From a virus (taxonomy: Duplodnaviria; Caudoviricetes): a stretch of 64,000 bases of DNA. Location: IMG/VR virus record IMGVR_UViG_3300024259_001623. One strand, given 5' to 3'. Positions 3,570 through 48,000 of the stretch are shown here, in pieces. Both the position numbers and the translations under genes were made by a program. Within the stretch, counting starts at the first letter, position 1. Each line of letters begins with the position of its first letter. Below the pieces are notes generated by a model. The model was not told where the DNA came from, did not search any database, and saw only the letters and a program-made list of their open reading frames with translations.

Positions 3570-3827
3570 CTACCTTGCGGAGGACGCAGCAGCAATGGCT
3601 CCAGAGATGGCGGCGCCGATCCAAAAGACGACTGCTCCAGCGACGTTAGCGAAAACGATCCTAACGACGCCCCAAGCGACACCCCAAGACTCGACCGGCT
3701 CGCATTTGGCCGCTTCGATGATGCCGACGATACCCAAAACCCAACCTTGGTAGATACAAACATACAGACCGCCGCCAATCGCCGCCAAGAACAACGCGAT
3801 TGCAAACATAATTCCAATGACCTTCAT
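3570..3827 (-). CDS. small membrane protein
   Basis: Multiple hydrophobic segments. Confidence 0.65.
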   Translation of the reverse strand: MKVIGIMFAIALFLAAIGGGLYVCIYQGWVLGIVGIIEAAKCEPVESWGVAWGVVRIVFANVAGAVVFWIGAAISGAIAAASSAR

Positions 3828-44425: not shown

Positions 44426-46096
44426 CTATATTTTACCGAGAATAAAATCGCTAACCATTTGAGGCGTTGCAGTATCGAAACCTACAACGTTCAACGAGTT
44501 ACGATCTTCGTTGTCAGTGATGCTATAAGGATTAGCTAACATACCACAAGCAATCATCTTAGCATCGTTTCTTCTTTTCTTACTGTCCCGATACAACTTC
44601 AAAGACCGATCTACATGAGTCTCGCCAGCCCAAGTCTCCATATCAGAGAGAATAACAAAAGCATCAACATCTACATTCTTACTCTTTGCCCAATTGGTAG
44701 CGATAGCTGCATCGGTGCCACCAAAGTTGCTCATCTGGGCCTTCTTCATTGCAGTCTGAATCGAATCCTTGGCAGTAATCTTCAAGTCTACCAAATTATG
44801 AGCGAAGCCCATGATATGATAGTTAGGTTCGGTTCTGGCAAAGACCATAGCCATTGCAGCAGCAGCAACGCAAGGACTCATATTACGGATACCAGATACT
44901 TCACCGCCAGCCATAGAACCAGAAACATCAACCGCCAAAAGGATATTCTTACCAGTTGGCTCAACATTCTTGAAGGACAGATAAAAAGCATCGTCCAACG
45001 CATCAAGAATCTGAGGAACTGGCTCATAACCTAACGAAGTAGGATAACCCCAATACGAATGGGTAAACTGATTGCTATAGGCACACATCGCTGCTAATAC
45101 GCTCAAAGGATGAATTCTGGCCTTATGCAACACTTCCTCATTTCTCAAAGTCTCACAAACATACTTTGTAGACGAGGATAGCGGAGTCAAAACGCCTGCC
45201 TTTGTCATATTACGGATATTACGAATCATAGCAGTCATTGGCATACCATCCAGCAATGCCTTCCATACCTTCTTATCATAAAGAGTATTAGGTACGCTCT
45301 CACGAACCAAACCATACTTCTTAATCATAGAAACCATTTCCTTGCTATCATCTACAGTCTTAGCAGTCTCATGTGCCCAGATATATCTAGTGGCATCATT
45401 CTTCTCCAACTTCGCAAACTGGACCTTGGTGAATCCCTTTCTTCCCTTAACGATATACTTCAAAACGGTTTGCATATCCTTACTACCGGGGATCAAGTGG
45501 ATTTTACGCAGCAAATCTCTATGCGACCAAGACGCTTCGCCTTCTACCTTACGCTGAGGATACTTACAAGCCTGGAATGCTACGGAATTAGGAGTCTTAC
45601 TGGTATACCAACTACCAATAGCCTTACGCAAACCTCTACCCCATCCTCTCATTTGGTCTACATAAGTCACGAAACTGAACAAATATGTTCCGATACGACA
45701 GACCTTGTTTAAGTTATCCAAAGCGTACTTACGAATCTCGTCATTATCGCAAGAAGCTGCTAAAGCCATAACAAAGATAGCAGGATCATTCTTGGCTGCA
45801 CGACCTTCATTAGAAACTGCGATAGTTTCGTCAATAGCAGCCATTCCGCCTTCGGTAGTCTTAAACAGCTTAGTTACATTCTTGGCGTTTTCCTTAGCGA
45901 ACTTTTTCTTACCAACATAAAAAGTTCCGCCATCAGAACCAAGAATTAAGAACCTACGAAGATGCTCTAACCGATCAACAGAATAAACATACCCACCGGC
46001 GTTATTCTTGACTTGACGCTTGTTCGCTCTCTGAGTCTGAGGAACGTCTACGTTACGTGAAGCTAAACCACTATCCTTAACAATATTCTTAGCCAT
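44426..46096 (-). CDS. rsr: Ro60/Rsr TROVE-domain RNA-binding protein
   Basis: NNAGGYV, RRFLILGSDGGTFY, MPMTAMIRN, RIHP, vWA MIDAS LAVDVSGSM, GGTD, DAFVILSDMETW, VVGFD. Confidence 0.96.
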   Translation of the reverse strand: MAKNIVKDSGLASRNVDVPQTQRANKRQVKNNAGGYVYSVDRLEHLRRFLILGSDGGTFYVGKKKFAKENAKNVTKLFKTTEGGMAAIDETIAVSNEGRAAKNDPAIFVMALAASCDNDEIRKYALDNLNKVCRIGTYLFSFVTYVDQMRGWGRGLRKAIGSWYTSKTPNSVAFQACKYPQRKVEGEASWSHRDLLRKIHLIPGSKDMQTVLKYIVKGRKGFTKVQFAKLEKNDATRYIWAHETAKTVDDSKEMVSMIKKYGLVRESVPNTLYDKKVWKALLDGMPMTAMIRNIRNMTKAGVLTPLSSSTKYVCETLRNEEVLHKARIHPLSVLAAMCAYSNQFTHSYWGYPTSLGYEPVPQILDALDDAFYLSFKNVEPTGKNILLAVDVSGSMAGGEVSGIRNMSPCVAAAAMAMVFARTEPNYHIMGFAHNLVDLKITAKDSIQTAMKKAQMSNFGGTDAAIATNWAKSKNVDVDAFVILSDMETWAGETHVDRSLKLYRDSKKRRNDAKMIACGMLANPYSITDNEDRNSLNVVGFDTATPQMVSDFILGKI

Positions 46097-46141
46097 TTTT
46101 CATCTCCCTTTTATAGTTATATCCCAAAATTTTTATAAATT

Positions 46142-46270
46142 ACTAGGTAAGTTAGTAGCATGGTTATATGCCCCCGTTCTATCATTAAACTATATCGCCG
46201 CTATTGCGACGACACCAGGAATCAAACCTGATTTTGGGGTTTATGGATAACCCAATGCCTTCGACCCAGT
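46142..46270 (-). ncRNA. yrlA: Y RNA 1 (YrlA-type, permuted tRNA domain)
   Basis: 5' ACTGGGTCGAAGG / 3' CTTACCTAGT Ro stem enclosing a T-arm, a loop-closed acceptor and a D-arm. Confidence 0.85.
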
Positions 46271-46290
46271 TATGTTCTTCTATATAAAAT

Positions 46291-46423
46291 ACTAGGTAAG
46301 TTATTAGTATGGTTGATATTACTGACGCTCTGCCGTTGAGCTATATACCGGCTTTGCCGATATAGCAGGATTCGAACCTACAACCTTCAGTTCCGGTTGA
46401 TAAACCAATACATTCGACCCAGT
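46291..46423 (-). ncRNA. yrlA: Y RNA 2 (YrlA-type)
   Basis: Same termini; GTAGG-TTCGAAT-CCTGC, acceptor closed by GGC-AAA-GCC, TAGCTCAACGGCAGAGC D-arm. Confidence 0.88.
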
Positions 46424-46461
46424 TATTTTCTTCTTTTTTATCCCTTATATTTTTATAAAAT

Positions 46462-46589
46462 ACTAGGTAAGTTGTTGGAATGGTATAATGCTCTGCCAAT
46501 TGAGCTATGTCGCTACATTGTAACGACAATGGGAATCGAACCCATAACCTTCTCATTAAAAGTGATAAACCATATCCATTCGACCCAGT
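46462..46589 (-). ncRNA. yrlA: Y RNA 3 (YrlA-type)
   Basis: Same termini; ATGGG-TTCGATT-CCCAT, TGTCG/CGACA, TAGCTCAATTGGCAGAGC. Confidence 0.88.
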
Positions 46590-46715
46590 TATTTTCTTTT
46601 AAAGCAAAAAATAAGTTGCCTAACAAATTAATATTAAGCAACTTATCCTTTTTTAAGCACCCGACGCCCTCTTACACCAATACATTTCCGAACGAGTCGT
46701 CACAGTTTATAAAAA

Positions 46716-46780
46716 AAGGCAAGTTAGTGTCAATAGCGTAGTGATCATTAAAAGTGATAAGCTATCGAAATTCGGCCCTT
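46716..46780 (-). ncRNA. Y RNA 4 (short)
   Basis: AAGGGCCGAA / ACTTGCCTT stem, TTATC motif, apical ATCA-CTTTTAA-TGAT hairpin. Confidence 0.7.
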
Positions 46781-46799
46781 TATTTTTCTATTTTATATA

Positions 46800-46879
46800 A
46801 AAGGATAAGTTTACGTTAATAGTTTTATTGGTTTTGATCTCTTAAATCATAATTGATAAACTATCAACTTCGACCCTTT
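46800..46879 (-). ncRNA. Y RNA 5 (short)
   Basis: AAAGGGTCGAAG / ACTTATCCTT stem, TTATC motif. Confidence 0.7.
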
Positions 46880-46976
46880 ACTTTCTAAGTTAATACCTAT
46901 TTTTTTATTTATAGGTCTTTTGACGTTAGGTATCAAACGCCCGGTAGCGAACCGGCTGACCTCCATTCTAAAACAA

Positions 46977-47042
46977 AAAGGCAAGTTATTATTAATAGTT
47001 ATTTTTATCCCTTTGATGATAAACTATTAAATTCGGCCCTTT
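46977..47042 (-). ncRNA. Y RNA 6 (short)
   Basis: AAAGGGCCGAA / ACTTGCCTTT stem, TTAATAGTT/AACTATTAA upper stem, TTATC motif. Confidence 0.7.
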
Positions 47043-47110
47043 AAAAAATCTCGGTTCCTACACCGTCATATAGACGGGAGAAGAAAATTCGAGATCATTT
47101 CTTCAAAAGA

Positions 47111-47280
47111 TAATATGAGGCGGCTCTAGGAAAAATTAAAAAACCTGAAACCTATTATCCAAACCTTACATCGGCTCCTGTCAACTGTTCTCTCCTGGTA
47201 AGGAGCCTACGATACAAACCAAACCGACTCAACTTTGCAATAAAACAAACTTTATGAAAAGAAAGAGCCGCCTCATATTA
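47111..47280 (-). ncRNA. 170-nt rod-like structured RNA candidate
   Basis: Perfect 17-bp terminal inverted repeat TAATATGAGGCGGCTCT; inner GGCTCCT/AGGAGCC stem; U-rich bubble. Confidence 0.55.
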
Positions 47281-47282
47281 AA

Positions 47283-47379
47283 CGAAGACCGCTGGATTCG
47301 AACCAACAACCTCAAGGGCTAATCCTTAGTCCCAACAACCTTTTTTGCCCTTGCGCTCTGCCAATTGAGCTACATCTTC
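47283..47379 (-). ncRNA. tRNA-like RNA with an expanded anticodon loop
   Basis: Canonical D- and T-arms; 7-bp CAAGGGC/GCCCTTG stem closing a 27-nt loop. Confidence 0.65.
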
Positions 47380-47385
47380 TTATAA

Positions 47386-47452
47386 ATCGGATTAGGTTTG
47401 TCCGTAGGGGGCTTTCATTCTCTATATGATAACCTACAAACTTCGACCCGAT
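47386..47452 (-). ncRNA. Y RNA 7 (short)
   Basis: ATCGGGTCGAAG / ATCCGAT stem, TTATC motif, 5' end just downstream of the promoter. Confidence 0.65.
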
Positions 47453-47457
47453 GTTAT

Positions 47458-47486
47458 ATTATAGTATCGCGTTATCAGAAACGCAA
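47458..47486 (-). promoter_or_regulatory. sigma70-like promoter for the ncRNA/Ro60 island
   Basis: TTGCGT-N17-TATAAT, 5 nt upstream of Y RNA 7. Confidence 0.7.
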
Positions 47487-47496
47487 CAACTTTTTT

Positions 47497-47907
47497 TCAA
47501 CTTTCTTCGCTTTCGCCTCCATACTCAAAATTGGAAAACTCTTCAGGGAGATTATCGTTAGTCTCAACCACTTCCATGACAAAAACATTAAAAGCGTCAA
47601 GTTCACAAAACGCTTTCATAAAAGCAGTCAAATTATTTCTCATCAGTTGATAAATGCACCCCAGAATAAGATGATTATAATACAGATCATCTCCAAATTT
47701 ATTTTGTATCTTTTGTATATCTCTGGCAACATCTGCCCTGGTAATAGAATTACCAGTAGAAGTCATTTCGTTGCCTCTCACAAAATCATGGTGATAGGTA
47801 AATGGAACCCTACCATATATAATACCAGGAATATCAGACAACTTCAGCCAAGCTACCAATTCTTCTACCAAATGATGTTTTTTAATTTCTTTCATTTTAG
47901 TCTCCAT
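47497..47907 (-). CDS. hypothetical protein
   Basis: Start moved to METKMKE because the longer ORF overlaps tRNA-Leu. Confidence 0.55.
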   Translation of the reverse strand: METKMKEIKKHHLVEELVAWLKLSDIPGIIYGRVPFTYHHDFVRGNEMTSTGNSITRADVARDIQKIQNKFGDDLYYNHLILGCIYQLMRNNLTAFMKAFCELDAFNVFVMEVVETNDNLPEEFSNFEYGGESEES

Positions 47908-47915
47908 ACTGTTAA

Positions 47916-48000
47916 TACTCCCTCCCGGGATCGAACCGGGACACCCGAAGGTACAGGTGCCTAAAACCTGTGCGTCTGCCATTTATTCCGCCAAGGGAGC
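47916..48000 (-). tRNA. tRNA-Leu(UAG)
   Basis: Loop TT TAG GC, long variable arm, A73. Confidence 0.93.

Follow-up and report, generated by a model that had tools for sequence, protein, structure and literature searches.

The 64,000-nucleotide (nt) stretch of viral DNA analysed here (IMG/VR record IMGVR_UViG_3300024259_001623, Caudoviricetes; referred to as the window) carries the gene of a Ro60 ortholog and an island of seven putative Y RNAs (RNAs A to G), all of which contain the pentamer UUAUC (Table 1). The stretch, which belongs to a marine phage, is present in seawater metagenome DNA runs, and no RNA run that contains it is listed. The Ro60 protein matches the Pfam domains TROVE (1.4e-34) and vWA_Ro60 (6.4e-47) as well as PHROG 850, and in comparison with the PDB it matches Xenopus Ro60 (1YVP, E-value 4e-113) and Rsr from Deinococcus (2NVO, E-value 1e-103). 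Its gene is located directly downstream of the seven RNAs on the same strand, with the RNAs lying 44 to 1360 nt upstream of it. Chen et al. 2014 required Y RNAs of bacteria and phages to be encoded on the same strand as a Ro60/TROVE gene and at most 4 kb away from it (PMC4201824); this applies to all seven phage RNAs.

Table 1. Features of the Y RNA island and the adjacent Ro60 gene (positions in the window; sbRNA, stem-bulge RNA)
Feature	Position	Strand	UUAUC	Remarks
Y RNA A, short, sbRNA-like	47384..47455	minus	47432..47428	RF01656 24.8 bits, sub-threshold
Y RNA B, short	46975..47046	minus	47022..47018	UUAUC paired with GAUAA; hairpin loop of 7-8 nt
Y RNA C, short	46797..46882	minus	46859..46855	RF01656 23.9 bits
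Y RNA D, short	46712..46784	minus	46760..46756	AUCA/UGAU hairpin, loop CUUUUAA; RF01656 21.2 bits
Y RNA E, YrlA-like	46460..46593	minus	46568..46564	T arm, closed acceptor-like hairpin, D arm; YrlA 29.4 bits, tRNA-like part only
Y RNA F, YrlA-like	46290..46425	minus	46403..46399	YrlA 29.7 bits
Y RNA G, YrlA-like	46140..46275	minus	46250..46246	canonical GGGUUAUC; copy 1 of the original prediction
Ro60 ortholog, 556 amino acids	44426..46096	minus		TROVE and Ro60 vWA domains; presumed protein partner of all seven RNAs

Each of the RNAs starts with a short 5' strand, followed by GGGYCGAA, an upper-stem strand of 9-10 nt and UUAUC, and each ends with ...AACUU(A/G)YC, the complement of the 5' strand and a run of U. 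RNAs A to D are stem-loops of 70-86 nt without a tRNA-like domain. Folding of E, F and G shows the permuted arrangement known from YrlA, with T arm, closed acceptor-like hairpin and D arm in succession, which for E and F is also evident from the cmscan alignment. In the minimum free energy folds, the ends of every copy are closed into a stem with a CGAA internal loop, and the diverged stems still pair. The elements expected of a Y RNA stem, namely paired ends, a Ro-binding 5' motif (GGUCCGA or GNCGAAN0-1G) and a bulge or internal loop, are therefore all present, with GGGYCGAA in seven of seven copies. At the Rfam gathering thresholds the window contains only tRNAs (including a false tRNA-Lys call on E) and no Y-type family, and a blastn search of the island against 50,697 phage records gave zero matches. 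Nevertheless, the assignment of the seven as putative Y RNAs appears well founded, since the Ro60 gene adjoins downstream, the copies fold with the CGAA loop and there are sub-threshold matches to the YrlA and sbRNA models.

The original prediction stated that all seven copies carry TTATC 9-10 nt past CGAA in spite of diverged stems, and this is entirely correct, as is the sequence it quoted for its copy 1, which is that of RNA G. Five copies (A, B, C, F and G) have a spacing of 9 nt and two (D and E) have one of 10 nt; in B, C, E and F the motif takes the form GUUUAUC. UUAUC and GGGYCGAA are identical in all seven copies. The mean pairwise identity, by comparison, amounts to 0.46 in the 5' strand of the lower stem, 0.50 in its upper-stem counterpart and 0.34 in the 9 nt past the motif. 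Could the pentamer then be shared by chance, by recent paralogy within the phage or, as far as animals are concerned, by independent convergence? The seven copies are paralogous, and TTATC is an AT-rich word in an AT-rich region that occurs 189 and 104 times on the two strands of the window. However, the pattern CGAA-N(9,10)-TTATC has eight matches in the 64 kb against 1.33 expected, none of 100 shuffles reaches eight, and seven of the eight matches are the minus-strand Y-like RNAs. Identity in the flanks has dropped to 34-50%, the block is found with unchanged spacing in more than 120 further Ro60 loci from many phyla as well as in cultured phages, and in some bacterial relatives the complete 5' and 3' stem strands fit the nematode model with up to 42.9 bits (gathering score: 38 bits). 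An explanation of this kind is thus extremely improbable.

The distribution of the motif was analysed in 168 Ro60 loci, comprising 80 from bacterial genomes and 80 viral ones from IMG/VR, both gathered by alignment-based scans, and eight contigs of the closest relatives (Ro60 identity of 53-61%; the closest Ro60 relative, P0001 with 78% identity, is not among these eight). Each locus was oriented with Ro60 on the plus strand, and L-numbers are used to name the loci. GGTTATC occurs 423 times on the Ro60 strand compared to 55 times on the opposite strand, and GGG[CT]CG plus 8 nt precedes nearly all occurrences. The distance from the anchor G[GA]G[CT]CG to the first TTATC shows a sharp peak at 11 nt (210 bacterial, 103 viral and 11 close-relative cases) with minor contributions of 10 and 12, whereas the opposite strand gives only three, three and zero cases at this offset. 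An offset of 11-12 from CG equals the 9-10 nt past CGAA found in the window. In DNA without long open reading frames, the excess of anchors on the Ro60 strand (193 bacterial, 153 viral) is nearly completely explained by this arrangement, since 179 and 134 anchors, respectively, have TTATC at +10-12.

A detector that ignored the motif and relied on the anchor plus closure of seven of eight lower-stem positions was over-permissive (920 hits on the Ro60 strand, 589 on the other) and was dropped. It was replaced by strand-background subtraction, a detector of permuted tRNA-like modules and a stricter set of closed hairpins. After background subtraction, the consensus of the Ro60-locus RNAs reads gcGGGCCGnngnnnntgGGTTAtC, in which only GGGCCG is more strongly conserved than the block GGUUAYC (G.86, G.90, U.87, U.93, A.82, U.71 with C.21, C.87). 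The tRNA-like module detector, which is blind to the 5' arm, found 84 modules on the Ro60 strand and a single one on the other strand of the loci and the window taken together. TTATC is located upstream of 64 of these 84, and most of the others have GGTTACC or GGTTCTC in the same place. Altogether, 417 motif-bearing arms were obtained, 171 of them tRNA-like and 246 short or of other type.

Since most of the Y RNAs sampled from bacteria and phages carry UUAUC, it is a core element of the family as a whole, shared with animal Y RNAs, and nothing special to this phage. It is also retained by the closest relatives of the phage, often as GUUUAUC, which disposes of the concern that related phages might not conserve it, and it occurs in the cultured actinophages Myrna, Sixama and SparkleGoddess. 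Nor is the number of seven RNAs unusual, because arrays in which 5-11 RNAs of this kind accompany one Ro60 gene are common among the loci. In some close relatives (L006:20, 433, 593 and 3700; L007:1116) GGGYCGA is replaced by GGGCUGA or GAGCUGA, so that the CGAA hallmark is lost, yet GGUUAUC or GUUUAUC is kept at the same distance. The overall counts of the variants are 356 for UUAUC, 90 for UUACC and 22 for UUCUC. The idea that UUACC tracks the locus, and thus co-evolves with its Ro60, was rejected, as the 90 cases are spread over 63 loci with 65.7 expected at random. Loci tend to have about one copy with UUACC in addition to several with UUAUC, and the variant is frequent in tRNA-like modules without an exact UUAUC; it may mark one orthologous member of each array.

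Part of this picture is known from YrlA, which has a conserved YUAY at nucleotides 22-25 in Salmonella, with a pseudouridine at position 23 in strain SL1344 (PMC4201824). In the crystallographic structure of YrlA from S. Typhimurium, U23 and A24 of this motif bend the helix by about 30 degrees (bioRxiv 10.1101/312249; PMC4201824); the tRNA-like domain has been deposited as PDB 6CU1, and the authors described the kink nucleotides as conserved while considering their generality unclear (bioRxiv 10.1101/312249). The Rfam YrlA consensus (RF02553) has an unpaired CUA(c) at the place equivalent to UUAUC, and all seven phage copies possess the YUAY after the Ro-binding stem as UUAU(C). YrlA and YrlB of bacteria and mycobacteriophages also resemble the phage RNAs in being encoded beside Ro60/Rsr on the same strand, in having the 5' motif GNCGAAN0-1G and, as far as E, F and G are concerned, in the permuted tRNA-like domain. 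There are also differences. The CUAc of the Rfam consensus lies about 13 nt past CG, whereas the phage and most of the sampled loci have GGUUAUC at 11 nt, and four of the seven phage copies lack a tRNA-like domain. E and F align to model positions 23-85 only and stay far below the RF02553 gathering score of 69 bits, and no Y RNA in the sampled loci scores higher than 47.9 bits with this model. With regard to novelty, the motif is routine in bacterial Y RNAs and has been published in the relaxed form YUAY (PMC4201824; bioRxiv 10.1101/312249), so the phage case is not new in itself. We found no paper joining the bacterial YUAY to the animal UUAUC in a literature search to which the reviews PMC10870794 and PMC6542706 did not belong.

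The pairing state of the pentamer is of special importance for its interpretation. We aligned 29 short Y RNAs, including A to D of the window, and the RNAalifold consensus shows compensatory changes in 14 of 16 pairs, with covariation in both stems. UUAUC is unpaired in this consensus and starts straight after the last G-C pair of the upper stem; UU..C is invariant in all 29 sequences, even in those with a different fourth base. The in-register complementarity of UUAUC to the 3' strand (0.39, 0.49, 0.23, 0.49 and 0.18) is at chance level, where the assignment of the 3' partner is heuristic and wrong for some long copies. A continuation of the upper stem through UUAUC paired with the 3' strand was rejected on these grounds. 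We likewise rejected the possibility that UUAUC(C) imitates the 3' strand ACUUAUCC and can pair with GGGU-C-GA in its stead, because the true 3' strand covaries with the anchor (C-G 15, U-A 14) whereas the motif stays UUAUC although about 85% of the anchors are GGGC.

The situation is different on the other side of the motif. A local hairpin of at least 4 bp that involves C21 and has (A)UC as its 5' strand can be formed by 197 of the 417 arms, compared to 99 in shuffled sequences. Loops of 7 nt dominate (76 cases) with a strong preference for CUNNNAA, and RNAs D and E of the window are of this kind. The suspicion, raised in the original prediction, that the pentamer is simply base-paired stem is therefore unfounded with respect to the 3' strand and justified insofar as its 3' part is often the 5' strand of the next hairpin. 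The 5' UU(A) is a junction, the 3' (A)UC often opens the next helix, and it is the sequence and not the pairing that is conserved, since UU..C is invariant, complementarity to the 3' strand is at chance and only some of the arms form the hairpin.

Some structural variants of this region deserve mention. Hairpins of 4-5 bp with an anticodon-like CUNNNAA loop right after UUAUC are found in unrelated bacteria and phages (L012:1850, L030:4215, L015:1564, L017:1984, L031:1370, L034:1484 and others), the commonest loops being CUGCUAA, CUGUUAA, CUUGUAA, CUUUUAA and CUCAUAA. In tRNA-like RNAs, a variable loop of the AGGUC type and then the T arm come after this hairpin, and such RNAs look like fuller tRNA mimics than Salmonella YrlA. 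A recurrent subfamily of short Y RNAs, UUAUC-N7-GAUAAAAAU, has UUAUC fully paired with GAUAA over a 7-nt loop, followed by AAAAU before the 3' strand. Its members are RNA B of the window, L114:913-983, L138:2325-2394 and 3592-3661, L123:3891-3958 and L152:3807-3951.

It is in this context that a tRNA-based origin of the pentamer has to be considered. The pentamer would then be mainly stem, i.e. the 5' strand (tRNA positions of about 26-31) of an anticodon-arm or variable-arm hairpin that goes back to an ancestral tRNA, and would be conserved only because this hairpin has to form. The excess of hairpins at C21 over shuffled sequences and the prevalence of 7-nt CUNNNAA loops agree with this, and both ARAGORN and Rfam thread RNA E as a tRNA-Lys with UAUCA in the anticodon stem. 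Such a stem should covary, though, and UU..C is invariant while the neighboring stems covary freely; moreover, half of the arms have no such hairpin, and the motif is kept in animal Y RNAs and in short Y RNAs without a tRNA-like part. We regard this origin as distinctly unlikely. The threading of E itself is a false call: positions 46520-46593 (minus strand), predicted as tRNA-Lys(UUU) by ARAGORN and with 33.7 bits by the Rfam tRNA model, are really the 5' two-thirds of this Y RNA. The 5' strand of the Y stem is taken for the acceptor and D arm, UAUCA/UGAGA for the anticodon stem and CUUUUAA for its loop, before the real T arm follows. This is a hint that the 5' arm of a Y RNA can be laid on the 5' half of a tRNA.

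The original prediction also drew a parallel to animal RNAs. For nematode sbRNAs (Boria 2010; Kowalski 2015, PMC4450293), the parallel is confirmed. The consensus of RF01656 (ceN72-3_ceN74-2) reads UCGGUCCGGaGucgaUGGGUUAUCa ... CCCAucgaCACCAACUUGACCG with 11 nt from CG to UUAUC, as in phages and bacteria, and its two strands agree with the consensus obtained for bacteria and phages, UGGG/CCCA and UUAUC included. The position of UUAUC at the 5' end of the loop, after an upper stem of the UGGG/CCCA type, is thus common to both. RNAs A, C and D of the window remain below the gathering score of RF01656 (21-25 compared to 38 bits). In contrast, two bacterial short Y RNAs exceed it (L032:4171-4236 with 42.9 bits and L024:422-490 with 39.3 bits). 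Both adjoin bacterial Ro60 genes in metagenome-assembled genomes (MAGs) of Chloroflexota and Verrucomicrobia, and their match spans both stem strands and not the pentamer alone. The sbRNAs are eukaryotic genes transcribed by RNA polymerase III. They differ from the phage RNAs in that they mostly do not occur together with the worm Ro60 and have their role in DNA replication, whereas the phage RNAs are part of an operon with Ro60.

In vertebrates, the proposed role of UUAUC as the conserved pentamer of Y1 and Y3 is correct for one of the two only. Human Y1 begins GGCUGGUCCGAAGGUAGUGAGUUAUC, with CG, 11 nt and then UUAUC, while human Y3 reads GUGUUUACAAC and has UUUAC instead. An exact UUAUC is found in a Y4-derived fragment (...GUGGGUUAUC). 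Human Y1 and Y4 resemble the phage RNAs in the lower stem and its bulged C, the GA/UU pairs, the internal loop and the 9-bp upper stem, after which UUAUC stands at the 5' edge of the loop; the loops and the known partners differ. The vertebrate Y model RF00019 gave zero matches at E-values up to 10 within positions 45500-48000.

The original prediction left it undecided whether the motif is ancient or convergent. Its presence in bacteria, phages, the sbRNA consensus and human Y1 supports an ancient, conserved element, and convergence is unlikely because block and spacing are the same in all of them. Judging from these sequence comparisons, homology, or a transfer of Ro60 together with its RNA, is far more likely than convergence. 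We go one step further only tentatively: the Ro site, the UGGG/CCCA upper stem of fixed length and UUAUC might constitute one signature of about 24 nt, GGNCCGnnGnnnnUGGGUUAYC, that is homologous in bacterial, phage, nematode and vertebrate Y RNAs, although the doubts slightly prevail here.

In summary, the motif is real and general, its spacing is kept, it is under selection at the sequence level and it is unpaired relative to the 3' strand. With respect to its function, we infer that UUAUC within GGUUAYC is a hinge which holds the effector module at a set angle to the Ro60 ring and probably touches Ro60 directly. The GGUUAYC block would be part of a conserved Ro60-associated Y RNA scaffold in bacteria, phages and animals. 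UUAUC is placed on the 5' strand 11 +/- 1 nt past the Ro60-contacted GGNCG, directly after the last G-C pair of the upper stem of fixed length. An A-form helix has about 11 nt per turn. The separation would hence correspond to one turn and would bring GGGYCG and GGUUAYC onto the same face of the helix. There, UU(A) would be unpaired and kink the helix, and (A)UC would begin the first helix of the next module, which might be a tRNA-like domain, an anticodon-like hairpin or a simple loop. The seven phage RNAs may have kept such a hinge because all of them dock on one phage Ro60 while presenting different modules. We favor this explanation since the two conserved 5' blocks lie one turn apart, since Ro60 reportedly reads mainly the 5' strand of the docking helix (PMC4201824; bioRxiv 10.1101/312249) and since the UA dinucleotide kinks the helix in the YrlA crystal. 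It is also supported by the retention of the motif whatever follows it, in tRNA-like and in short arms alike.

Several points weigh against a hinge. No structure or footprint places Ro60 on the region of the pentamer, and the Xenopus Ro60 complex includes just a fragment of a Y RNA (PMC12135203). A minimal stem-bulge-stem RNA already binds the Ro60 of the Thermus phage phiLo at about 17 nM (PMC12135203), and therefore the motif may be dispensable for affinity. UUACC and UUAUC coexist in the same loci with zero sign of co-variation with the Ro60 of the locus. RNA B and its relatives pair the whole pentamer, and since the local structure differs between the subfamilies, a single hinge geometry is an idealisation. 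Furthermore, the sampled loci are the best matches to the Ro60 clade of the phage itself, and the frequencies may not hold for all Ro60 clades. Taking everything together, we consider arguments for and against the hinge about evenly balanced.

The original prediction had considered a partner-binding site, and in this reading UUAUC would be the docking site of a separate, non-Ro60 protein common to bacteria, phages and animals. The conservation of sequence rather than pairing would fit such a partner, and so would the contribution of the sbRNA motif to Ro60-independent initiation of DNA replication in vitro (PMC4450293, PMC4726728) and the pseudouridylation of U23 in the YUAY of one Salmonella strain, by which some enzyme evidently reaches the site (PMC4201824). 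On the other hand, Ro60 itself is the sole candidate common to phages, bacteria and animals, the motif occurs outside coding sequence almost only on the Ro60 strand and in fixed register to the Ro-binding site, and the known effectors PNPase and ZBP1 bind variable loops (bioRxiv 10.1101/312249). A separate partner is thus unlikely, but worth keeping in mind. The same pseudouridine, located at nucleotide 23 of YrlA from Salmonella SL1344 (PMC4201824), might indicate a signal for RNA modification or processing, for instance for a pseudouridine synthase or for a nuclease that frees the RNAs from an array precursor. Tandem arrays do need processing, and YrlA and YrlB of M. smegmatis originate from one precursor (PMC4201824). 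Yet the modification is strain-specific and absent in LT2, and one would look for a processing signal at the RNA termini and not 25 nt inside the mature molecule, which makes this role quite improbable.

A close counterpart of the phage system is phiLo, which encodes a Ro60 with the CGAA-containing Yrl1 and Yrl2 upstream and for which binding has been demonstrated in vitro (PMC12135203). Both phages thus encode their own Ro60 and Y-like RNAs with CGAA upstream of it. In contrast to the seven RNAs of the window, phiLo has two, only their stem-bulge has been resolved, and the pentamer is not discussed in the respective paper (PMC12135203). Moreover, the Xenopus and Deinococcus proteins share only about 17% identity with phiLo Ro60 (PMC12135203), whereas the protein studied here matches both with E-values of 1e-103 or better.

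The surroundings of the Y RNAs contain further RNA-related elements. An intein-split RNA ligase gene is located upstream of the island. Between A and B, there are a tRNA-shaped gene whose anticodon loop contains an insertion of 31 nt (47283-47379, minus strand; Rfam tRNA 43 bits) and a long hairpin closed by GAGGCGGCUCU.../...AGAGCCGCCUC (47111-47280, minus strand), both without the Y-stem motif. In other loci, Ro60 and its Y RNAs are often found inside dense tRNA arrays with 10-25 tRNAs within 6.5 kb, as in the bacterial MAG contigs L017, L025, L056, L059, L086 and L012. The Gordonia phage Sixama (L171) has unannotated Y RNAs between annotated tRNAs downstream of Ro60. On a contig labelled as uncultured Enterobacteriaceae, a GOLLD RNA that contains a tRNA (L033:306-751; RF02032, 165.7 bits) is located about 1.7 kb upstream of a Ro60 gene.

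For the phage, these results mean that its seven RNAs are ordinary members of the family of Ro60 partners, and the pentamer does not set them apart. The claim specific to this phage is an ordinary one, as the motif is the norm of the family and partly published as YUAY; the 5' signature that extends across the domains of life merits follow-up. In a review from 2015, bacterial Y RNAs were considered not to be homologous with those of vertebrates, and the tested ones showed no similarity in the upper stem (PMC4726728). In contrast, most of the Y RNAs next to Ro60 in our sample share the end of the upper stem and UUAUC, with the same spacing, with nematode and human Y RNAs. In practical terms, the Rfam model of nematode sbRNAs detects bacterial Y RNAs, while the Rfam YrlA model misses most of them. 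If the common signature is true, the module credited with starting DNA replication in vertebrates and nematodes would predate that role and would have an older function linked to Ro60. Short Y RNAs of bacteria and phages would then serve as tractable stand-ins in the search for the reader of this module: with one Ro60 and RNAs of 65-75 nt, these systems would make it testable what reads UUAUC and the upper-stem module.

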